The notes below the pieces were generated by a model. It was given only the letters and a program-made list of their open reading frames with translations, did not search any database and was not told the DNA's origin. Made by a program: the position numbers and the translations under genes. A DNA stretch of 64,000 nt, taken from assembly GCA_009015555.1 (NCBI GenBank), contig GCA_009015555.1_3613.1; one strand, given 5' to 3'. The stretch comes from a phage. This document shows, one piece after another, positions 2,188 through 32,935 of this stretch. Every line of letters begins with the position of its first letter. Position 1 is the stretch's first letter.

Positions 2188-2193
2188 TTGGAA

Positions 2194-2219
2194 AAGGTCA
2201 CCCTCGGGTGGCCTTTTTT
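2194..2219 (+). terminator. rho-independent terminator after capsid gene
   Basis: GGTCACCC-TCG-GGTGGCC stem-loop followed by TTTTTTATT. Confidence 0.5.
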
Positions 2220-2982: not shown

Positions 2983-5900
2983 ATGGCACAATATGAAGAT
3001 AAGGTCGTGGAAGTTCTGGTGACTCTCCCGGAACCGTCTGCGAGCACCTCTGGTGGTTCTGGTGCGCCTTTCACGGGCATCGAAACCCAAGACACCGTAT
3101 CCACCACACTGATTGGTGATGGTACTCAATCCTCCCCTCTGCAAGCAAACATCAACATCTCCCGTCGTTCAGGAAACCGCCTCCAAGTGGTGAGCACCTC
3201 CAGTGAGCAGGGTCTGTATGTTGCTGGCTCCGACACCAAGGTGTCTGCTAAGGATGGGAACACCGTAACTTACATCTCCGCCCAAGATGCGGCTAACGCT
3301 GGCAACCCGGCCCTGGAAGGTGTATACTCTGATCCGGTGAACGTGTCAACCACGTCACCGAAGAAGACTCTGGAAATTAAGGCTGATCCTACCGGGAAAG
3401 CCAAGACCCAAATCGACGTGATCGTTGATCCAGATTCCATGAACGCCCTGAAGGTAGGCACTGCTGGCCTGAGCGTTCCTGTTTCTGTGGCTCAAGACAA
3501 CACTCTGGAAATCCGCCAGGGTGCTCTGTACGTCCGCCCGCAAGAGACTAAAATCTCCCAAGACCCAAACAACAAGATTCAAGTCAAGTCTGACGGGATT
3601 TACGTTGACACTGTAAAAGGTGATAAAGGTGATACCGGGGCAACTGGCCCGGAAGGCCCTCAAGGCCCACAGGGAGACCCGGGTCCTCAAGGTCCGCAAG
3701 GCCCGCAGGGCGATAAGGGTGATAAAGGTGACACCGGGGACGTAGGACCAGCGGGGGCAACTGGCCCGGCAGGGGCACAGGGTGCTCGTGGCCCAGAAGG
3801 TCCGAAAGGCCCGGCTGGTATTGGTATCAACGTCATCGATCAGCTTGACGAAGTTTCTCAGCTTCCGGCTGTTGCGGAAATGGAACTGGGCGACACTTAC
3901 GTTATTGGACAGAATTTCTGGACCGTTGTCAACGAAAACAACGTGAAGCAGTGGAAGGACATCGGTAACTTCGCGGGGCCTGAAGGTCTGTCTGCTTATG
4001 AAGTTGCAGAAGGCGCGGGCTTCGTTGGTACTGTTGATGAGTGGCTGGAATCCCTGAAAGGGGCTGACGGTATCGGTCTGCAAATTCTTGGTTCCTTCCC
4101 TGACCCGTCCTATCTGCCTGATGAAGGTAACAAGCCGGGTGACTGCTACATCATCCAAGACATGATGTATGTGTGGACAGGTGATGAAGATGGGTGGCAG
4201 ACTGTAGGTCAGATTGGCCCAGAGGGTAAATCTGCGTATCAGGTATGGCTGGCTAACGGTCACACCGGATCTCAGGTTGACTTTCTGAACTCCCTGGTTG
4301 GCCCACAAGGACCGAAAGGTGATAAAGGCGACAAAGGTGATACGGGTGCTGACGGTACTAACGCCAACGCCATCAACCTCTTGGGTAAAGTCGCAGACGA
4401 AGCGAGCCTCCCGGCTGGCGCGGATGCAGGCGATGCCTACCTGATCGGAACTAGCGTTTGGGTCTCCACTGGCAATGACAACTGGGAAAACCTCGGTGCC
4501 TTCCAAGGCCCTAAAGGTGATCAGGGGGATGTCGGCCCTGCTGGCCCGAAAGGCGACAAGGGGGACGCAGGTGACGTAGGCAAAGACAACTACGCATTGG
4601 CGGTAGAGAACGGGTTCCAAGGTTCCCTGAGCGACTACCTGGCATCTCTCAAAGGTGCGAAGGGCGACACTGGCCCGACTGGTCCGCGTGGTCTTACTGG
4701 TCCGCAGGGTGTGAAAGGTGACGCAGGGGAAGGTCTTGCGATCCTCGGATCAAAAGCTGATCCTTCAGAACTACCTTCCAATCCAGTAACTGGTGATGCG
4801 TGGCTGATCGGAGAAGACCTGTACATCTTCAACGGCACTGCTTGGGAGAATGCAGGCCCTGTCCGTGGTCCGAAAGGTGACACCGGAGCCACTGGCCCGG
4901 CTGGAGCTAAGGGTGACAAGGGTGACCAAGGCGAGAAAGGCGACAAGGGTGACCAAGGTGATGTCGGCCCGGCTGGCCCGGAAGGTCCGCAGGGGACTGG
5001 TCTGACGCCGAAAGGTTCTGTTCCTACAGTAGCAGATCTTCCTGACCAAGACAACACCAAAGGCGACTTCTGGGCTGTAGAGGAAGATGGCAATGGTTAC
5101 GCTTGGGATGGGTTGCAGTGGGTTGTTACTGGCCTGACTCGCGGCCCGCAAGGCGAGAAAGGCGACAAGGGCGACAAAGGGGATAAAGGTGATCCGGGGG
5201 ATACTGGTGCCACAGGCGCAGGTGTTATTCCGAAGGGAACTGTAACCTCTGCTGCGACCCTGCCTCCTACCGGGAACACCGTCGGTGATTACTACGTCAC
5301 TGAGGATACTGGGACCGGATACTCTTGGAACGGGACAACCTGGGTTGACTTGGGAGTTGTGCGTGGACCGCAAGGACCGCAGGGCGACAAAGGTGATACC
5401 GGAGACCAAGGTCCGCAAGGTGTGAAAGGTGACACTGGTGCTACAGGCCCTCAAGGCCCGCAAGGTGACATCGGCCCGGGCGTTGAGATCATGGGTAAAC
5501 TCAACAGCACCTCAGAACTGCCTTCAACCGGGCAACTGGGTCAGGGTTACCTGATTGACGGCGACTTCTGGGGATGGACTGGCTCTGCCTACGAAAACCT
5601 TGGACGTATCCAAGGCCCGGTTGGTCCTACTGGTCCTACTGGTGACCCAGGCCCTACGGGTCCGCAGGGTGTCAAGGGTGATAAGGGTGATCAAGGTTCC
5701 TTGTGGATCGTGTTCGACCATGACCCGGGTCCTGCTGATGGTCGTGTAGGTGACTACTTCCTTAACTCCTCAACGTTGCAGTTCTTCCGCAAGACGAACG
5801 CAACCACTTGGGCACCGATGGGTTACATGGGTGGCGGTAACGTTTACGATTCCCCGAAAGACGGCAAGCAGTACGCTCGTATCGACGGGGATTGGGAACT

Positions 5901-6264
5901 GGTCGAAGTTCTGGAAGCGCCTCAAGACAACGGCTACTACGTCCGTGCGAACGGTGCGTGGCAGAAACTGGATCGCTACGACCTGCGTGTCATGTCCGCA
6001 ACTGGCGCACTGGATGCTTCTGTATCCAACGTGTTCACCGTTGACGGAACCACGTCTAAGGCAATCACCATCTCCAACCTGCCAGCGGGTCGTGCGATGA
6101 CTGTGGTTGTTAAGTTCCTCGGTAAAGGTGGGTCCATGACTTGGCCTTCTCCGATGGCATGGTCTAACGGCACCCAGCCAGCACTTGGTACTACCCGTAC
6201 CATCCTGACGTTCTTCTGGGACGGCACGGACCTGACTGGTGTTCAGGCAATGACTGTAGACTAA
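2983..6264 (+). CDS. collagen-like fibre protein (multiple G-X-Y triple-helix blocks alternating with about 45-aa fibre repeats, C-terminal globular domain)
   Basis: Start moved to ATG at 2983 (RBS GGAG; N-terminus [11 protein letters not shown] resembles sheath-like gene at 11084); many [19 protein letters not shown]-type repeats; repeated LP..GD.Y/W..G..W....W.N.G modules. Confidence 0.8.
3604..5700 (+). repeat. tandem collagen G-X-Y coding repeats (ggtgataaaggtgacaccgg-type units)
   Basis: Repeated GGT GAY AAR GGY GAY ACY GG and CCN CAR GGN units visible across the gene. Confidence 0.7.
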
Positions 6265-6270
6265 TACCCC

Positions 6271-6290
6271 AAGGGGGCTTCGGCCCCCTT
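6271..6290 (+). promoter_or_regulatory. GC hairpin with UUCG tetraloop (AAGGGGGC-UUCG-GCCCCCUU), no U-tract
   Basis: Perfect 8-bp stem immediately after collagen gene stop; followed by RBS of next gene rather than a T-run. Confidence 0.4.
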
Positions 6291-6305
6291 CACAAGGAGA
6301 TTCAA

Positions 6306-6956
6306 ATGGCTGTAGATCCTACCAGCAAGGTTTATGCTTGGACACCGATGATTCGTTTGTCCGACATGAAATATCCTGTCTATCTTAGCGACTTCCTCAA
6401 AGAACATACTAACGTAAGTATTGGTTCTTACGTTTGGGAAAAGGACATGCGAGACCTGTGGGGTTATTGCATGGTTCATGATTCTGAAGTTCCTATTGGT
6501 GATGTGGTCACCGAAGGAAAACCGGAACTAAACGAAGAAGATGACCTGTGGTACAAGACTTGGGTTGCTCGTGATTTCTCCCCAGAAGAGATCGCAGAGA
6601 ACTTGGCCCGCGCCAAGGAAGATTATCGTACCCGTGCGTATCAGCAATATACCTCTGACCTTCAGTCGGGTGTGGCTGTTGACGGCGACGTTTTCTCTGT
6701 TGAACCACGAGAACTCCTGAACCTTGAACTGTCCAAAGCGTTTGCGTTTGCAAACTCTGAATCGGATGTTCTGATTCGCAAAGCTGATTACACAGTTTTG
6801 ACTCTACCGTCTGCGGATGCTGTTGTCAAGATTGATGAAATCCTGGCTGCAACTGCCAAGGTCCACCAGAACCTGTTGGCATACGTAAAAACTGTGTATG
6901 ACACCGAAGTCATCACAGACATCCCTGAAGTTCCTCAAACTTTCGTAGGAGAATAA
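6306..6956 (+). CDS. hypothetical protein (possible fibre assembly factor, by position)
   Basis: 216-aa ORF with RBS AAGGAGA; between two collagen-like genes. Confidence 0.55.
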   Translation: MAVDPTSKVYAWTPMIRLSDMKYPVYLSDFLKEHTNVSIGSYVWEKDMRDLWGYCMVHDSEVPIGDVVTEGKPELNEEDDLWYKTWVARDFSPEEIAENLARAKEDYRTRAYQQYTSDLQSGVAVDGDVFSVEPRELLNLELSKAFAFANSESDVLIRKADYTVLTLPSADAVVKIDEILAATAKVHQNLLAYVKTVYDTEVITDIPEVPQTFVGE

Positions 6957-6957
6957 C

Positions 6958-7269
6958 ATGGCAGCAATTGGCGGAGCATCCCTTGGTGTCCTGACTGGTT
7001 ACCAGATCATGGACCAAGCAACAGGAGAGAGCAAGACCATCTCTGAACTTTTTGCAGGTGGTGGCGGTACTCCCGGCCCGAAAGGTGACAAAGGTGATAC
7101 GGGAGACACTGGACCAGCAGGTCCAGCAGGCCCGGCGGGGGCAGCAGGTGCAGACGGTGTTGGAATCGCTGACATCGCAGCGGCTCGCTCAGGCGATACT
7201 GTAACTCTAACCTTCACCATGTCTGACTCTACAACGAAGACTGCATCTTTCGACCTTCCAGCCGCATAA
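6958..7269 (+). CDS. small collagen-like protein
   Basis: 103 aa; [34 protein letters not shown] block; RBS GGAGAA. Confidence 0.65.
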   Translation: MAAIGGASLGVLTGYQIMDQATGESKTISELFAGGGGTPGPKGDKGDTGDTGPAGPAGPAGAAGADGVGIADIAAARSGDTVTLTFTMSDSTTKTASFDLPAA

Positions 7270-7274
7270 TTAAT

Positions 7275-7296
7275 CCGCCCTTAGGGGCGGTTTTTG
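7275..7296 (+). terminator. rho-independent terminator
   Basis: CCGCCC-TTAG-GGGCGG stem followed by TTTTT. Confidence 0.55.
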
Positions 7297-7312
7297 TACA
7301 TAAGGAGACTGT

Positions 7313-8683
7313 ATGGGAACAATGAGGGGTATCACAGGGGAGCAGAACGGTGTATACTTCGGGTATGCACTTTACGATCTCGTTAACGAAAAACTTATCC
7401 CCTTTGACCAAATTGGCGAGGGGGGATCTTCTGTACCCGGCCCACAGGGTCCTCAAGGGGAGAAGGGGGATAAGGGAGACCCCGGTCCTCAAGGACCTCA
7501 AGGTGTCCAAGGAGAGCCGGGCAATCCTGGTGAACCAGGCCCTCAAGGGGAACAAGGCCCTCAGGGCGAGGCAGGGGAAATTGGTCCTCAAGGACCTCAG
7601 GGACCAGTAGGACCAACAGGCCCTCAGGGCGAGAAAGGGGAGAGGGGTGAACCAGGCCCTCAAGGTCCTGAAGGCCCTGCTGGCCCGCAAGGGGAACAGG
7701 GACCCGCCGGGGCAACAGGCCCCGTTGGACCTTCCGGTGCGACAGGTCTTGTATGGAGAGGGAACTATGATGATTCAGTCTCCTACGACGTTAACGATGC
7801 AGTTGGGTATCAGGGTGCCACATATTTCTCTACTCAGCCATCCACAGGTATCCCACCGGAATCTACTGGTACAAGGGTTAACGACCACTGGGCACTAATG
7901 GCCTCAGAAGGTGCGCCGGGACCAGTAGGTCCAGCAGGACCAACAGGCCCGCAGGGTTTGCAAGGACCAGTAGGACCCGCAGGGCCTTCCGGTGCGACAG
8001 GTCCTGCCGGACCCGCCGGACCACAAGGAGAGCAAGGCCCTCAAGGGCTACAAGGACCACAAGGTCAGCGAGGTATTCAAGGTGTTCCGGGTGAAAAAGG
8101 GGAAAAGGGAGATCAAGGACCAGTAGGTCCGGCAGGCCCTGCTGGCCCGCAAGGGGAACAGGGACCTCAGGGGGAGACTGGCCCTAAGGGAGATAAGGGT
8201 GACAATGCCCTCCCGACCATTTCTGGGATTTATGCCTCCCCGATCAACAAAACGAACTCTTGGATTCAACTCCCCGGTAACAACTTGGGGAATGTTCGTC
8301 TTATTCTCTCTGCAAACAACAATGTCTCTCAGACCCGAGTTGGTTTCTCCGCAGGAACTTCGTCAGTGGCGAAGAGGATCGGATTCTCTTATGCACTAAC
8401 AACAACTTACACGGACGTAAATCGTATTAAGACCGGGAGAACCGGCCCCACCTCGATCTCAAATACAGTAGTTTATCCGTCGGACTCTACTATCAACGTG
8501 GGGTTCGGCGACAAGGTAGTCCTTGTTGTTTTTTGCCACGACACCCTTGAAGCATGGGAAGTGACAGTGGCAGGGGTTGCCCAAAAAACTGCTGTGGGCG
8601 ACACAAGTGGGCGTTTGGCTGTACATGCAGTACAGATCTCCGGGGACAGTACGTTACTCACAGGTAATGTCTACAACCCATAA
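7313..8683 (+). CDS. collagen-like protein (two long G-X-Y regions, C-terminal globular domain)
   Basis: 456 aa; RBS AAGGAG; long [19 protein letters not shown] repeats. Confidence 0.75.
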
Positions 8684-8717
8684 TGGCTGGCTTGTGATCA
8701 TTCCCATCCCATAATTA

Positions 8718-8746
8718 AAAGCCGCCTCCGGGCGGCTTTCTTTTTA
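8718..8746 (+). terminator. rho-independent terminator
   Basis: AAAGCCGCC-TCC-GGCGGCTTT stem followed by CTTTTT. Confidence 0.55.
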
Positions 8747-8773
8747 CCTGTCAATGACTTTTTGTGACCAACA

Positions 8774-8782
8774 TGATAAAAT
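8774..8782 (+). promoter_or_regulatory. candidate extended -10 promoter (TGaTAAAAT)
   Basis: TGnTAAAAT motif downstream of a terminator and upstream of next gene; same motif recurs at 9374, 16358, 19961, 42803-42814 (minus) and 59785-59796 (minus). Confidence 0.3.
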
Positions 8783-8812
8783 GGTTGCACTGGCTAAAGC
8801 ATGGAGACTATT

Positions 8813-9340
8813 ATGACCAACGAACAAGTAATTGAGCTTGTCCGTGTCCTCCTTGGTGGGATCACCACTGAGGAAATTTCGGACCAGACGATCATCTTCT
8901 TCTGGACCAAGTGGAAGCTGACGTATGATTTGGATAACCACCCGGAGAAAATTCCGGTGGCCCTGTACAACACCGTTGTTGACTGTGTGCGTTGGTTGAT
9001 CGTACAAGAAGTCTCCAGCGGAAATTCATCAATTCGTGAGAGATTTGAAAAGATCGGTGATGAGACTATCTCCATCAAGGGCGGATCAAGCTGGCAATCC
9101 TGGAAAGACTTCCTTGACTGGCTAGAACTCAACCCGGACTACATTGATCCATCTCTGGCGTTCAATTCCTCACTGGTAATCATCGGCGGTGTGCGTAAAG
9201 ATGAGTTCTTCCGTGTGAAGAATAACCCTAACTCCTACAACGGCTTCATGGAGCAAGGTGTCTACCCTACCCCAGCGATCCCGAAGCAATCCTCGTGGCC
9301 TTGTGACCGTGTTCGGCGCAGTCCGTGGATGGTCCGCTAA
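8813..9340 (+). CDS. hypothetical head-tail joining protein
   Basis: Track ORF 8801..9340; second ATG at 8813 has GGAG spacing; gene order after head and fibre genes. Confidence 0.45.
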   Translation: MTNEQVIELVRVLLGGITTEEISDQTIIFFWTKWKLTYDLDNHPEKIPVALYNTVVDCVRWLIVQEVSSGNSSIRERFEKIGDETISIKGGSSWQSWKDFLDWLELNPDYIDPSLAFNSSLVIIGGVRKDEFFRVKNNPNSYNGFMEQGVYPTPAIPKQSSWPCDRVRRSPWMVR

Positions 9341-11083: not shown

Positions 11084-12505
11084 ATGGCTGAATATCAAGA
11101 CAAGGTTGTTGACGTTGAGGTTAGCCTTGGCACTCAACCAATCGACACCGTTGGCTTTGAAACCCCGATGTTCCTGGCAATGCACGGCAACTTCCCAGAG
11201 CGTATTCGTTTCTACGTGTCCACTGCTGGGATGGTTGCTGATGGATTTGCAGTAGGTTCCCCGGCATATCAGTTTGCCACCAACGCATTCGCAGGGAACT
11301 TCGCCCCGCAGCGTGTGGCAATCGGACGTATGTCTCTGGAATCTACACGTGTGGACTTCACCGGGACCGCAAACACCGAACAGGTTGTCGTTAATATTAC
11401 CTTGAACAAGATGGTCAAGGCTGTTAAAATTAACGTACTGCCTGGAAACACCCCAGCCCAGATTGCTACGGCACTGGCTGATGCAGTTACCGCAGATGCA
11501 GATTTGACTGGCAAAGTCACTGCTGTTGCGAATGGGACTTATGTGACCATTTCAGCGGTATCTCCGAACGTGGTTAGCGTAGGTAAAGGCGCAGGTACTT
11601 ATAAGATCGTAAACGAATCTGGTGAGACTGTTGCAACTGCCCTGCCGTTCGTTCTTGCAGAGAACCACAACTGGTACTTCCTGTCAACGGAAGCCCGTTC
11701 TGATGCAGACATCGTTGCTGCCGCAGAGTTCTCCAAAGCGAACTACAAGCTGCACGTTTACAACTCCACCGATGTGGACGCATACGCCCCCGAGAACTCC
11801 GCTGCCTCCGTGTTCGACACGTTGAAGGCTCTGAGTTATGACTCTCTGGGAACATCCGACGCAGGTGCTGACGTTGACTTCACCGAAGGCTCTGTCATCG
11901 GCGCGATGGCTGCGAACGATCCTTCTTACGGCGACTCCTTGCACCTGAAAACGATGCCGGGTATGGTTCCGTTTGCTGGCTCCGACACTCAGCGTTCCAA
12001 CGCTTGGTCTCGTAACGCAAACATCTACCGTTCCCTGTACGGTGGTGGTAGCTACATCGAAGGTAAAACTTCTTCTGGGCAGTACGTTGACGTGATTCGC
12101 TTCTCCCATTGGGTTAAATTCCGTATGGAAGAATCCGTGTTCGCGTACATGAAGCGCCGTTCTGACATGGGTCTGTCCATGAAGATGAGCGACGAAGACC
12201 TGCCTGTACTGAAGTCTGTTCTGATGAACAACCCGATCAACATCGGTATTCGTAATGGTGGTATTCTGACTGGCTACGACGCTGAAAACAAAGTGTCCTA
12301 CGACCCGACGATCACTATTCCGAAACGCGCCCAGATCCCGACGAATGACCTTGCTGCACGTATCCTGCGTGACGTGAAGGTAGAGCTTGTGTACAACAAC
12401 TCTCTGCACTACGTTAAGATCCGCGCTTCCGTTGTACTGGATCGCCCGGCGGGCCAGAGCACCAACGCTCAGGCCCCGATGTCTTCCTCTGCTGTAGGAG
12501 TGTAA
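11084..12505 (+). CDS. tail sheath-like protein
   Basis: 473 aa; N-terminus MAEYQDKVVDVEV resembles sheath N-termini; followed by 160-aa tube-size gene, frameshifted chaperone pair and tape measure. Confidence 0.5.
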   Translation: MAEYQDKVVDVEVSLGTQPIDTVGFETPMFLAMHGNFPERIRFYVSTAGMVADGFAVGSPAYQFATNAFAGNFAPQRVAIGRMSLESTRVDFTGTANTEQVVVNITLNKMVKAVKINVLPGNTPAQIATALADAVTADADLTGKVTAVANGTYVTISAVSPNVVSVGKGAGTYKIVNESGETVATALPFVLAENHNWYFLSTEARSDADIVAAAEFSKANYKLHVYNSTDVDAYAPENSAASVFDTLKALSYDSLGTSDAGADVDFTEGSVIGAMAANDPSYGDSLHLKTMPGMVPFAGSDTQRSNAWSRNANIYRSLYGGGSYIEGKTSSGQYVDVIRFSHWVKFRMEESVFAYMKRRSDMGLSMKMSDEDLPVLKSVLMNNPINIGIRNGGILTGYDAENKVSYDPTITIPKRAQIPTNDLAARILRDVKVELVYNNSLHYVKIRASVVLDRPAGQSTNAQAPMSSSAVGV

Positions 12506-13872: not shown

Positions 13873-16317
13873 ATGGCAAGTGGAAACGTGATTGTCACCA
13901 AAACAGTCAACCGTACAACGTTTGAGGTGGACAAATCCTCGTATGCCCGGGCGGTCAAACAGATCCGTCAAGTTGGCAAAGAGTGGGAGAAGGCATCTGA
14001 TGCAATCTCTAAACCAAAGAAAGACCCGGCTAAAGCCTACGACAAATCAGCCCAGCAGATGCGCCTGGTGAATAAGCGCTTGGCAGAAACCCGCGCCCGT
14101 GAAGAGAAACGCGCCTCTGAACGCAGCATCGCGCTGGCCCGTCGAGAGGCGAAGGCCAAAGAAGCGATCGCCAAGGTATCCGCTGCTCGTATTAAGCAGC
14201 AGGTACAGCAGATGACCGCCCCTCGTGCCGGAATGAGCGAGATGAAGAAGTTCTACCAGCAGCAAGAGCGTGAGGCCAAGAAGGCTAACCGTAAAGCTAC
14301 GACTGGTATGAATGCAGCATCCCGTCCGATGAACGTTACCCGAATCAACTCTCTCCAACTGCCCCCTCGTGGTGGTCAGGGGACCGGAATGGTGGGTGAT
14401 CCGAATAAAGTTTACAACCCGGAATTGATCGCTGCCCAGAACCGTGCAATGGCAGGTCGAATCCGCAGTCAGTCTCAGGCCCAGGACCGCAGAACCAAGG
14501 CAGAGACACGCCGCAAGGCGGCTGAAGCGGCTCGTGCAGCCCGCATCGAAGATGTTATGGCACAACAGCGTATTCGTTTGTCATCCAAGTATGGCCGCAA
14601 CTATGCGGGCCGTCTTGGTGGAAATGCCGCTGGTCAAGGTATCCAAGATCTGAACCGTCAGTTCCGTACCGGGGCGCTGTCCGCCGGACAGTATCGCCAG
14701 AGTATTCAAGCACTGGAACGCCAGTTCCGTTCGGCACAGGCAAGTGCAGGCGGGTTTGGGGCCGTCATTGGAGACATCCGCTCCCAACTGTTGGGCGCAG
14801 GTGCAGCATACGGTGTATTTGCCGCAGGCGCAAGTGTTCTTCAACAAGGCCAGTTCTTCCAGGGTATGGATGCAACGATGACGATGGTTTCTGATTCATC
14901 CGAAGAAGCTGCAAAAAGAATCCAGTTCTTGAAGGATCAGGCTTATCGACTCGGATTGGATCTTAAAATCGCTTCTCAGGGCTACGTGCAGATGTCCGTC
15001 AACTCCGACGGTATCCTGAATAAGGCTCAGAACGATGAATTGTTCAAAGGCTTCTCTGAGTACGCAACGGCCCTTCAGGTTGACCCGGTTAAGTTCCAGC
15101 GTGGTATCACCGCGATCGGGCAGATGATGGGTAAAGGCCAGATCATGGCTGAAGAATTGAAAGGCCAGTTGGCTGAAGGTATCCCGGGTTCATTGCAGGT
15201 ATTCGTGAAGGCGTCTCAGGAAGCGTTCAACGACACCACCATCGACGTTGAAAAACTCATGGATATGATGCAGAAGGGTGAACTGAAAGCTGCCAAAGTT
15301 CTGCCATTCGTAGCCAAATACTTCGCCGAAGCTGCCCGTAACGGCGGCGCGTTGGATAAGGCATTGCAGAGCAACCGTGTGGCGATGCAACAGATGCAGC
15401 AGACGTGGGTTAACTTCCAGAACGCCATCTTCCAGGGTGGTTTCGGCGAGCAAATGACCCGTGTGTTCCGTGATCTCGCAACAATCCTTGATAGTAACGG
15501 TGAACTGGCAACCAACCTCGGGGCCTTCTTCGGCAATGTGATCGAGGGGTTCTGGGACATGGTTACAGAGATCCACGATGACTTCGTTCTGTTGGACCGT
15601 ATCGTCAGCTACTATGCTGAGAAACTCGGTTACCAAGGTGAACTCCTCAAGGATGTTTTCAACTGGGCAGGGTATGCAGTCGGCATGGCGATCTTCGTCG
15701 GCAGTCTCTACAAAATCTTCGGTATCCTTAGCAAAATCGCTGGACTGCGTGGTGCTCTTAAAGAGATCCGTGGTACAATGGGTGGCGATATGGGCGGAGG
15801 CCGTGGAGGAAGAGGTGGTAGAGGCGGACGTGGGGGCGGAGGCCGTGGAAATGGTTGGGGTGCTCCTCGCGGGGGTGGTGGATTCAAGCTGCCTGTTGTT
15901 CCTGGGCCGTGGCCTATGGTGGCAGGTATCCTTGGATGGAACTGGCTGAACGATGAGGAAGTTAACGCCAAAGCTCAGGCTGTAAATGAGTTCATGGCAC
16001 CTGCCCGTGCAACCCAGTCCCCTATCGAGCAAGCACTCACGGGGGACATGGGTCTCTTCATGAAGACAGCGTTCTACTCTTTGTTTGGTTCCAAGAAGGA
16101 AGCTCCAAGCACAACCATCGATCCTGAACGTTTGGTTACCGCTGGCGCTTCTGGGCCATATCCGGGGCCGTTCCCAATCAATCAGCCTCCTCAAAAGGTT
16201 GAGGGCAACGTGACCATCGAGATCAAGGCTGGCGAATTGAAGAACATGATTCGTGCCGTTGTTGATGAGAACAACCAGTTCAACTTCAACATGCTCATCC
16301 AGGGTGGGCCTAACTAA
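13873..16317 (+). CDS. tail tape measure protein
   Basis: 814 aa; Ala/Gln/Arg-rich coiled-coil composition; internal GGRGGRGGRGGRGGGG tract; RBS GGAGGAGG; position after frameshifted chaperone. Confidence 0.75.
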   Translation: MASGNVIVTKTVNRTTFEVDKSSYARAVKQIRQVGKEWEKASDAISKPKKDPAKAYDKSAQQMRLVNKRLAETRAREEKRASERSIALARREAKAKEAIAKVSAARIKQQVQQMTAPRAGMSEMKKFYQQQEREAKKANRKATTGMNAASRPMNVTRINSLQLPPRGGQGTGMVGDPNKVYNPELIAAQNRAMAGRIRSQSQAQDRRTKAETRRKAAEAARAARIEDVMAQQRIRLSSKYGRNYAGRLGGNAAGQGIQDLNRQFRTGALSAGQYRQSIQALERQFRSAQASAGGFGAVIGDIRSQLLGAGAAYGVFAAGASVLQQGQFFQGMDATMTMVSDSSEEAAKRIQFLKDQAYRLGLDLKIASQGYVQMSVNSDGILNKAQNDELFKGFSEYATALQVDPVKFQRGITAIGQMMGKGQIMAEELKGQLAEGIPGSLQVFVKASQEAFNDTTIDVEKLMDMMQKGELKAAKVLPFVAKYFAEAARNGGALDKALQSNRVAMQQMQQTWVNFQNAIFQGGFGEQMTRVFRDLATILDSNGELATNLGAFFGNVIEGFWDMVTEIHDDFVLLDRIVSYYAEKLGYQGELLKDVFNWAGYAVGMAIFVGSLYKIFGILSKIAGLRGALKEIRGTMGGDMGGGRGGRGGRGGRGGGGRGNGWGAPRGGGGFKLPVVPGPWPMVAGILGWNWLNDEEVNAKAQAVNEFMAPARATQSPIEQALTGDMGLFMKTAFYSLFGSKKEAPSTTIDPERLVTAGASGPYPGPFPINQPPQKVEGNVTIEIKAGELKNMIRAVVDENNQFNFNMLIQGGPN
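15779..15900 (+). repeat. Gly/Arg-rich low-complexity tract inside tape measure gene
   Basis: Encodes GGDMGGGRGGRGGRGGRGGGGRGNGWGAPRGGGGF. Confidence 0.6.
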
Positions 16318-31917: not shown

Positions 31918-32564
31918 CTTACTTTTGAAATTACCAGTTTTTGAACGTAGCCCTGCAACAGGGCGTAAGTTACACCACCCACATAACTACCGCCGACAGA
32001 GAGTCTCTCTCCGGCACCGAACCAGTTGGGAACAGAAAAGTTCTGAACTTCCCCGCTCACCATATTTCTCACACGGATCTGCCGAGAGTCCGGGTAAGTT
32101 TCGATCCGCAGATTAAAAACTTGGCCCTGATTACCATTGATCGAGCAACGAACATAATTTCCGCTGTTGTCTGTTGGGAACAATTGGTGCCCTCCAACCC
32201 CAACCATGCCATAATGCGCCAGTCCGGCGACGATCCTTGTGACGTAATCGCCAGAACACCACACCATCTGGGTTGCAGAAGGACTAAGGCTTTGGAAAAC
32301 AACCTCAATCACCATAGGATCTGTGGATAGATCCACTGAATACTGAGTTTGGAAATACCCTTGGCCTTGGGCAGGTATGAACTGCATGACCCTTCCAATC
32401 CCTGCAACATCGACTATCCTTGGGCCTGTGCCGACCAAAGAGAAGGTGTGGTTTTCAGACCAGTCCTTCAAAACAGTCTCGCCGAGAGATTGCCGTGTGG
32501 CATCCACGTAGAGAATGGCATCCTCTTTGCGAGATGACTTCCCTATAATCATTATCTCGTTCAT
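31914..32564 (-). CDS. N-tag family paralog E: ConA/LamG-like jelly-roll protein (N-terminus MNEIMIIGKSS)
   Basis: Track ORF 31914..32567 trimmed to ATG; LamG-like pattern; N-terminal motif shared with four other genes. Confidence 0.55.
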   Translation of the reverse strand: MNEIMIIGKSSRKEDAILYVDATRQSLGETVLKDWSENHTFSLVGTGPRIVDVAGIGRVMQFIPAQGQGYFQTQYSVDLSTDPMVIEVVFQSLSPSATQMVWCSGDYVTRIVAGLAHYGMVGVGGHQLFPTDNSGNYVRCSINGNQGQVFNLRIETYPDSRQIRVRNMVSGEVQNFSVPNWFGAGERLSVGGSYVGGVTYALLQGYVQKLVISKVS

Positions 32565-32935
32565 CAATTTCTCCGAGGTTTTAAAACACCTGATTTTGAA
32601 AGAGGGATCTCATCGGCATCTCTGCCTTTCTCTCCATCTTTCCCGTCCTTCCCGGCCTTTCCTGGTTTGCCCTCCGGGCCTGCCGGACCCGCTGGACCTG
32701 GCACATAAACATACTGCGGTTCAGTAAACGCTGCAATAAACAGCAGTATTGCCCAAGCAACACCATTCACCCACAGTGCAGGCCACATTGAAAAGAATAC
32801 CGACAGCGCCAGAATCAACATCGTATTCCGATGTTCTCTCTTGCGGGCCACGAAGTAAGGGACCAGCCAGAACAGTACAAATACCCAGGCCGAGCCTGAG
32901 AACAACGACCACATCACATCGACAAACTCTGTCAT
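32564..32935 (-). CDS. membrane protein with short collagen-like segment
   Basis: 123 aa; three hydrophobic helices then [27 protein letters not shown]. Confidence 0.5.
   Translation of the reverse strand: MTEFVDVMWSLFSGSAWVFVLFWLVPYFVARKREHRNTMLILALSVFFSMWPALWVNGVAWAILLFIAAFTEPQYVYVPGPAGPAGPEGKPGKAGKDGKDGEKGRDADEIPLSKSGVLKPRRN

Follow-up and report, generated by a model that had tools for sequence, protein, structure and literature searches.

A variable cassette of collagen-like virion-fibre genes between the head and neck genes of a CR3/CR8-like phage

We describe here a cassette of fibre genes at positions 2983-8683 of a 64,000-nucleotide stretch of phage DNA (GenBank assembly GCA_009015555.1, contig GCA_009015555.1_3613.1), which we call the window and to which, unless another genome is named, all coordinates refer. 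The cassette encodes, on the + strand, proteins of 1093, 216, 103 and 456 amino acids (aa). We propose, with a probability of about 60%, that it is a variable block of virion-fibre genes, in which the 103-aa and 456-aa proteins would stand on the capsid hexamers, the 1093-aa protein would dock on a hinge sheet of the sheath type at the neck or tail and the 216-aa protein would be an accessory component, the whole presumably serving the capture of the host or of its flagellum. An earlier note, made from the sequence alone, had described a module of three collagen-like genes inserted among the head genes and had suggested, with due caution, that they encode head or whisker fibres. The inserted block is real, but it comprises four or more genes, the 216-aa gene (6306-6956) having been omitted. 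The cassette genes are already annotated, and their products are partly confirmed by proteomics in relatives; what is new here is the link between the N-terminus of the putative Pagoda protein and proteins with collagen stalks, the homologues at the hoc locus of T4-like phages, the anatomy of the foldon-like and M modules, and the copy of a tail-sheath strand at the N-terminus of the largest fibre.

The first 12 kb of the window share 98.1% identity with Cronobacter phages CR3 and CR8; with the Pectobacterium, Enterobacter and Klebsiella phages that belong to the genus Certrevirus, in the subfamily Vequintavirinae, the identity is 80-95%. Judged by this similarity, the window phage is a member of Certrevirus, a lytic Cronobacter myophage of the CR3/CR8 type.

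Collagen-like tracts in genuine genes

Three open reading frames (ORFs) of the cassette contain long series of uninterrupted G-X-Y triplets, as the earlier note had claimed: counting runs of at least four triplets, there are 95 in the 1093-aa protein (2983..6264), 12 in the 103-aa protein (6958..7269) and 68 in the 456-aa protein (7313..8683). In the largest protein they form eight blocks (of 23, 7, 9, 9, 15, 9, 13 and 10 triplets) and in the 456-aa protein two tracts (35 and 33), and in both of these proteins proline is the commonest residue at position X. The Pfam family Collagen (PF01391) matches the 1093-aa and 456-aa proteins with E-values of 4e-32 and 2e-33, respectively; the 103-aa protein scores 20.9 bits, under the cut-off of 27.2, despite its 12 uninterrupted triplets. 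The tracts would form trimeric triple helices, for which the foldon-like hairpins of the largest protein, described below, give indirect support.

The reading frames themselves are not in doubt. GGAG precedes the ATG at 2983 and the ATG at 6958, the latter being coupled to the stop codon of the 216-aa gene, and AAGGAG precedes the ATG at 7313. In the relative CB7, tandem mass spectrometry (MS/MS) of purified virions has found the homologue of the large fibre (CB7_10; 39 peptides, 46% coverage), the homologue of the 216-aa protein (CB7_11; 7 peptides) and the protein of the next slot (CB7_12; 8 peptides). The possibility that the G-X-Y tracts are artefacts of a different true frame, which would have undone the earlier note, is ruled out by the ribosome-binding sites (RBSs) together with the CB7 virion data. 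Long ORFs of 421, 230 and 153 aa also run antisense inside the collagen genes (3355-4620, 4771-5463 and 7229-7690, minus strand); they are free of stop codons because of the GGN-NNN-NNN periodicity of the triplets, and are not genes.

A shared module at the N-terminus of the 103-aa and 456-aa proteins

The 103-aa protein consists of an N-terminal anchor module (aa 1-33), the 12 triplets and a 35-aa beta domain, which we call 'X'. Its residues 1-42 are 71% identical to the protein pTE217 of Pectobacterium phage phiTE, after which the two sequences diverge completely; likewise, phrog_20253, the family of pTE217, matches aa 1-41 with an E-value of 2.8e-12. The alignment ends at residue 42, and the C-terminal Pagoda domain of pTE217 (~125 aa) is absent from the 103-aa protein. 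The two genes nevertheless occupy the same genomic slot. The cryo-electron microscopy (cryo-EM) study of phiTE (PMC11972413), in which collagen is never mentioned, describes an unmodelled 'Pagoda' density at the centres of the hexamers, without symmetry at its contact with the capsid and weaker on the hexamers adjacent to pentamers, and putatively assigns it to pTE217, the fifth most abundant virion protein. Because the module is common to the window proteins and to this putative Pagoda, we infer that the ~33 residues would plug into the capsid, most likely at the hexamer centres, where a trimer would sit on a six-fold site.

The module (G...GV..GY.I.D...G....I.EL..GG) also heads the small collagen proteins of phages CR9, SSBI34 and Kashira, as well as gp065 of phage 4MG, and tblastn finds it in 26 phage records. 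The C-terminus of 4MG gp065 matches the Pfam family Phage_head_fibr, to which gp8.5 of phi29 belongs, with an E-value of 9.5e-13. The 456-aa protein, in which the anchor module is followed by a CBM5/12-like middle domain between tracts of 35 and 33 triplets and then by a 158-aa C-terminal domain, starts with a related version of the module, as do its relatives in SSBI34 and W70 (hhalign probability 94%, E-value 1e-7, over 33 columns). A homologue of this second protein is absent from phiTE, CB7 and CR9. Full-length homologues (39-40% identity, E-value ~2e-68) are encoded by the T4-like phages VR7 (L012, positions 6007-7290) and Kosakonia phage 305 (L013, positions 5016-6425), in both cases immediately beside Hoc-like genes: the homologue has gp24/rnlB on one side and the Hoc-like decoration genes and inh on the other. 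Matches to the N-terminal anchor alone were found by tblastn in VR5, VR25, VR26, ESCO10 and KIT01 as well. These similarities imply that fibres of the 456-aa type have been exchanged horizontally between Vequintavirinae and Tevenvirinae.

The comparisons support the prediction that both smaller collagen proteins are head fibres, conserved in their proximal module and exchangeable in the parts beyond it, and the cautious suggestion of the earlier note gains substance from the Pagoda-type module, the phi29 domain of the 4MG protein, the homologues at the hoc locus and the foldon-like hairpins described below. In such fibres the collagen triple helices would be stiff spacers that keep the binding domains off the particle. 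The 103-aa protein would project its small beta domain on a stalk of ~10 nm, and the 456-aa protein would project the CBM5/12-like domain and a globular tip on a stalk of ~60 nm made of two segments.

Architecture of the 1093-aa beaded fibre

The largest cassette protein (homologue of pTE215 and CB7_10; 85% aa identity to pTE215) is a beaded collagen-like fibre. In its collagen array (3619..5703, +) the eight blocks alternate with seven M modules of 44-48 aa and three H modules of ~25 aa, and an eighth M-like module follows the last block. The eight copies of M align, as expected from the ~45-aa repeats with conserved aromatic residues reported in the earlier note, and yield the consensus h.h.G.v...s.LP..g...GD.Y.I....Y.W.G...W...G, in which LP, GD.Y, Y.W.G and W...G are the conserved elements. 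The H module (SAYEVA..GF.GT..EWL.SL.G) is a widespread fibre repeat, and a homologue search with the M/H region brought up nothing but short proteins that share it. No Pfam family covers the M module. A profile built from the eight modules matches 4420 cluster representatives (E-value of 1e-3 or lower) among 1.84 billion proteins; many of these have a length of 800-1600 aa and contain 5-16 copies of M, and all nine matches that we sampled also carry collagen repeats.

Beyond the array lie two tandem foldon-like beta-hairpins (5839..5970, +), which match the Pfam family Fibritin_C in two stretches with 24.9 bits (cut-off 21) when the scan is limited to the C-terminal 189 aa, and with 19.4 bits, under the cut-off, when it covers the whole protein; structure prediction also renders them as hairpins. 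They are probably the trimerization and registration element, so that the fibre would be brought into register and trimerized from its C-terminal end. The protein ends in a globular tip (5971..6261, +), in agreement with the globular domain noticed previously: the last ~90 aa are predicted as a beta-sandwich with a predicted local distance difference test score (pLDDT) of 80-89, in an AlphaFold2 model of the C-terminal region that was built on 12 sequences and has a pLDDT of 66 outside these residues. The predicted fold resembles tailspike and fibre domains, including docking domains of branched complexes (CBA120 TSP4, gp9). At the DNA level the tip (~5970-6264) is ~95% identical to phiTE, compared with 75-82% for the shaft, a conservation that would fit a conserved ligand or a docking role inside the phage better than a host-specific receptor. 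With 0.29 nm per residue of triple helix, to which the modules are added, we estimate the length of the fibre at roughly 130-150 nm; the tail of phiTE is ~102 nm long.

In the metagenomic relative L017 (positions 4659-8918 of its contig), the large fibre is encoded by two neighbouring ORFs (1112 and 305 aa), of which the second has its own RBS, and a beta domain of the 103-aa type (the 'X' domain, GVGI.DI...V.LTF.M.D.T.K..SF) is split over their junction. At this junction two fibre chains could be joined non-covalently.

Such joints, together with the conserved tip and its resemblance to docking domains, suggest another explanation of the shared module, namely that the ~33 aa are a trimerization or folding nucleus, or a peptide that docks to the 216-aa protein or to the large fibre, and that the small proteins are branches of one composite fibre. 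The occurrence of the module in T4-like phages, which have a different capsid protein, speaks in its favor as well. However, pTE217 is fifth in abundance, as expected for hundreds of capsid-bound copies and not for a few branched fibres, and conservation of the module goes together with conservation of the capsid protein, the distal parts being variable. We regard a composite fibre as improbable, and prefer the anchoring of the small proteins to the capsid.

A copy of a sheath strand at the N-terminus of the large fibre

The 1093-aa protein lacks the anchor module of the other cassette fibres, and the only N-terminal similarity that we found for it among the window proteins is to the tail sheath. 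Its residues 1-15 (2983..3027, +) are a copy of the hinge strand S4 at the N-terminus of the sheath (11084..11128, +; MAEYQDKVVDVEVSL): ten of the 15 residues are identical, at the same offset from the start. The motif DK[VIL][VIL][EDNS][VAIL].[VIL] occurs in two places only in the six-frame translation, the fibre and the sheath (regular-expression scan; 0.055 occurrences expected), and hhalign relates the two N-termini with a probability of 96% and an E-value of 2e-9. The motif is kept in the fibres of CR9, SSBI34, W70, Kashira, 4MG, L017 and another metagenomic relative, L015, and in the sheaths of 4MG, rV5, a phi92-like phage and two metagenomic relatives. A tblastn search with the 21 N-terminal residues of the fibre returned fibre orthologues only and no sheaths. 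Recent gene conversion between the two gene starts is an unlikely source of the resemblance: their DNA differs at many positions, synonymous ones included, and the peptide is conserved across genera. What is conserved would thus be the protein sequence.

Residues E3-L15 of the phiTE sheath are strand S4 in the 'hinge sheet' that links the subunits, and in the neck the C-terminal extension of the tail terminator imitates S3 and S4 (PMC11972413). By analogy, residues 1-15 of the fibre may add a strand to a hinge sheet of the sheath type, so that this protein would dock by beta-strand augmentation on the neck or the tail and not on the capsid shell. The large fibre may therefore belong to the tail. 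The 216-aa virion protein (6306..6956, +; homologue of pTE216 and CB7_11) is probably a fibre-associated adaptor or a chaperone, which in the latter case would be retained in the particle.

The same data can be carried further, into a picture in which the S4-mimicking peptide fastens the 1093-aa fibre to the contractile tail, at the neck or at a ring near the baseplate, as the true organelle of certreviruses for the capture of flagella, and in which the portable 33-aa anchor builds head fibres at the hexamer centres that are exchanged between Vequintavirinae and T4-like phages. Taken as a whole we consider this picture doubtful. If it were true, docking by S4 mimicry would be a previously undescribed way of fixing a fibre to a contractile tail; moreover, with ~140 nm the fibre would exceed the ~100-nm tail in length, and capture could be coupled mechanically to the sheath.

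It is also conceivable that the resemblance to the sheath has nothing to do with attachment and that the 1093-aa protein is a head fibre or filament, for instance at the capsid vertices, that captures rotating flagella as in phages phiCbK and 7-7-1. Its gene directly follows the capsid and Inh-like genes, the certreviruses depend on flagella, and the head fibres of 7-7-1 and phiCbK bind them. The lack of the anchor module that the other slot proteins carry makes this placement unlikely, and the description of phiTE reports no density at pentamers or vertices (PMC11972413); the conserved copy of S4 would, in addition, demand another explanation.

A more conventional placement would make all three collagen proteins ordinary, receptor-binding tail fibres attached to the baseplate, the position of their genes on the capsid side being incidental. 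This is how databases label them: RefSeq and PHROG call the cassette proteins 'tail fiber', and the authors of the CB7 study suggested a tail-fibre identity for CB7_10 on account of its collagen domain. Tail fibres indeed often contain collagen repeats and H modules, the C-terminal fold of the large fibre has its counterparts among tailspikes and fibres, and a 'third putative fiber', not assigned to a protein, is seen close to the phiTE baseplate (PMC11972413). However, the genes belong to the head-neck module and stand well apart from the cluster of baseplate and fibre genes at ~16-30 kb of the window, and their products show no similarity to the N-termini of the other fibre genes of the window. 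Furthermore, the anchor module is common to the putative capsid protein Pagoda, the 4MG protein of the same slot carries the phi29 head-fibre domain, and the T4-like homologues occupy the hoc locus. We find it hard to reconcile these features with baseplate attachment and assign it a low probability.

The division that we favor, with the two smaller proteins on the hexamers and the large fibre on the neck or tail, faces several difficulties besides the database labels. The assignment of Pagoda to pTE217 is putative and based on MS abundance alone (PMC11972413). As pTE217 has no collagen, the shared module could be a trimerization element and not a capsid anchor, and its presence in T4-like phages, with their unrelated capsid proteins, makes a contact specific to one capsid less likely. 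All S4 positions of the hinge sheet in the phiTE neck are reported to be filled by strands of the sheath or of the tail terminator, and no free acceptor is known (PMC11972413). The cassette proteins are not modelled in the phiTE (9CUL, 9MJN) or phi92 entries of the PDB, and the main text of the phiTE paper places neither pTE215 nor pTE216 (PMC11972413). For a receptor-binding tip it is unusual to be more conserved than the shaft across host genera. Finally, the similarity of the middle domain of the 456-aa protein to CBM_5_12 is weak and below the Pfam threshold (19.1 bits, cut-off 26.2, E-value 0.0014); the L017 homologue has a precomputed match to CBM5/12 that is itself labelled 'weak'.

Variation of the cassette among relatives

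The claim that the block is an accessory insert among head genes is borne out by the relatives that we compared. In rV5 and in the phi92-like phage Eryne there is no gene between the Inh-like and adaptor genes, and the capsid and Inh-like genes lead directly to the adaptor and Neck1 genes. The cassette is present in Certrevirus, in Seunavirus and in unclassified relatives, with very different contents, and from this distribution we regard it as a module inserted relative to other Vequintavirinae.

The slot downstream of the large fibre and the 216-aa gene illustrates this variability. It holds a single collagen protein of 104 aa in CR9, a single non-collagen protein of 164 aa in phiTE and CB7, and a single protein of 527 aa in W70; the window phage, CR3 and CR8 have proteins of 103 and 456 aa, and SSBI34 has three (115, 262 and 105 aa). 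Kashira, in which the 216-aa gene is absent, has four (63, 350, 352 and 110 aa). The Seunavirus 4MG has one protein of 99 aa. Among the metagenomic relatives, L014 has one protein of 109 aa, and L017, in which both ORFs of the large fibre precede the 216-like gene, has three of 99, 500 and 446 aa. In L014, the collagen fibre gene is separated from the 216-aa-like gene by an insertion, a gene for a 383-aa RCC1/WD40-like beta-propeller (1471-2622 of its contig), which can be regarded as another optional component of the cassette.

The cassette also diverges faster than its flanks in the comparison with phiTE: blastn gives 91-98% DNA identity for the flanks, 75-82% for the fibre shaft and 77% for the 216-aa gene, and finds no phiTE counterpart of window positions 7300-8700. 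Variation in the length of the repeats, which the earlier note had anticipated, is evident too, as the large fibres of the relatives contain from six to nine collagen blocks and 75-129 triplets; within Certrevirus, a single block differs (9 vs 11 triplets). The tandem repeats in the DNA are short and imperfect (units of 9 bp, 3-7 copies, 65-83% matches).

Comparison with known virion fibres

The 103-aa protein invites comparison with its closest analogue, gp12 of SPP1, a protein of 64 aa with eight triplets that is reported to form a trimer at the hexamer centres and to be dispensable for capsid stability, and whose gene lies just upstream of gene 13, the capsid gene. Both are short proteins with a central G-X-Y run (8 in gp12, 12 in the 103-aa protein), and the 103-aa gene likewise lies in the head module, two genes after the large fibre. 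However, there is no homology outside the triplets (BLASTP aligns only 'KGDTG', E-value 0.23), and neither the N-terminal module nor the C-terminal beta domain of the 103-aa protein has a likeness in gp12. The window phage, moreover, is a T=13 myophage that already possesses a cement protein of the beta-tulip type, and capsid binding of its 103-aa protein is suggested only by the module of pTE217. With pTE217 the slot is the same, the capsid gene region is 95-98% identical in DNA and the N-terminal ~42 residues are shared; the difference is that pTE217 carries a non-collagen domain of 125 aa in place of the collagen and the 35-aa domain, and that phiTE lacks the second, paralogue-like fibre of 456 aa.

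The large fibre resembles T4 fibritin (Wac) in having a foldon-like hairpin motif C-terminal to a long rod, which in the window protein would likewise be trimeric. However, its rod is collagen with interspersed beta modules and not an alpha-helical coiled coil, and it has two tandem hairpins and an additional globular domain. Outside the hairpins, searches of Pfam, PDB and PHROG gave no match to fibritin, including its N-terminal neck-binding domain, and PDB sequence searches with the whole protein, or with the joined non-collagen parts of the cassette, returned only collagens and engineered foldon fusions. The gp8.5 of phi29 is a trimeric, capsid-decorating adhesion fibre whose domain (PF11133) stands behind the same type of anchor in the slot protein of 4MG; the window proteins show no match to PF11133, and the gp8.5 shaft is a helix-turn-helix supercoil located at quasi-three-fold positions, in contrast to the collagen shafts of the window. 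Collagen-like phage tail fibres and the collagen-like prophage proteins of E. coli O157 share with the large fibre the G-X-Y blocks, the phage fibre repeats (H among them) and terminal trimerization domains, but differ from it in that the window gene lies at the head-neck junction and its product shows a regular alternation of M and an N-terminus copied from the sheath.

Possible role and significance

Reversible capture of the host surface or of the flagellum, which would raise the encounter rate, appears to us the likeliest role of the cassette, because CR3 and phiTE depend on the flagellum, the head fibres of the flagellotropic phage 7-7-1 and of phiCbK bind flagella, and the decoration fibres gp12, Hoc and gp8.5 aid adhesion. 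If the large fibre does capture flagella, the current proposal that the short tail fibres make the first contact will need to be revisited. The certreviruses CR3, CR8, phiTE and CB7 are candidate biocontrol agents, and phiTE has now become a structural model. For the latter, our results would give the Pagoda density a testable identity, its N-terminus being a portable anchor that bears collagen stalks in sister phages. As the combination of M modules with collagen is abundant in metagenomes, a first placement of such a protein on a virion would annotate a large protein class.

Flanking genes, regulatory signals and other G-X-Y runs

A conserved Inh-like head gene precedes the cassette, and the portal-adaptor gene follows it. 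Upstream of the cassette, in order, are a scaffold-like gene and the genes for a beta-tulip decoration protein (720-1169), the major capsid protein (1189-2187; Pfam Phage_cap_E; E-value 7e-223 against the phiTE capsid chain 9CUL) and the 204-aa Inh-like protein (2308-2922, +), the conserved left flank outside the variable block. The 204-aa protein is 97% identical to pTE214 and homologous to 4MG gp068; rV5 has its counterpart split into gp059 and gp058 and interrupted by an additional segment. Its C-terminus matches phrog_1051 ('inhibitor of protease', the PHROG of the T4 prohead protease inhibitor), homologues carry the Pfam domain Phage_Inh_N, and in CB7 the homologue was not detected by MS of virions. 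After the cassette genes (1093-aa, 2983-6264; 216-aa, 6306-6956; 103-aa, 6958-7269; 456-aa, 7313-8683), the conserved right flank begins with the portal adaptor (8813-9340, +), a homologue of pTE218 (95% identity) and of rV5 gp057 (48%) with relatives that carry Pfam Phage_Adaptor_PhiTE; it is followed by Neck1, head completion, the tail terminator and the sheath (11084-12505).

The hairpins or terminators said to bracket the block are all four present where they had been placed, except that one of them lacks a T-run. A Rho-independent terminator follows the major capsid gene (2192..2219, +; stem 2196-2213, GGTCACC/GGTGGCC, then a T-run), at a site where the phiTE annotation marks the equivalent. 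The GC hairpin between the large fibre gene and the 216-aa gene (6271..6290, +; AAGGGGGC ttcg GCCCCCTT) is the one without a T-run, a bidirectional GC hairpin at 7275..7290 (+) is followed by TTTTT and represents a terminator, and a strong terminator with a 9-bp stem and a T-run closes the cassette (8718..8739, +). An additional hairpin can be read in the sequence at 2931-2946, and promoter-like sites, identified by consensus match only, occur at 2280-2309 and 8754-8782. These signals and the absence of the block from some relatives agree with its description as moron-like, but the term is loose, as the genes encode structural proteins of the virion of a lytic phage and have no part in lysogenic conversion.

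Elsewhere in the window, the six-frame scan of the 64 kb, with a threshold of at least five triplets, found G-X-Y runs in two places only. One is a Gly/Arg (RGG) tract (GGGRGGRGGRGGRGGGGRGNGWGAPRGGGG; 15796-15849) in the tape-measure gene (13873-16317), which reads as a short G-X-Y run and is not collagen. The other is a 123-aa ORF on the minus strand (32564-32935), outside the structural module; its N-terminal half is hydrophobic and membrane-like and precedes nine triplets, so that the product resembles a small membrane protein to which a collagen-like tail is attached.

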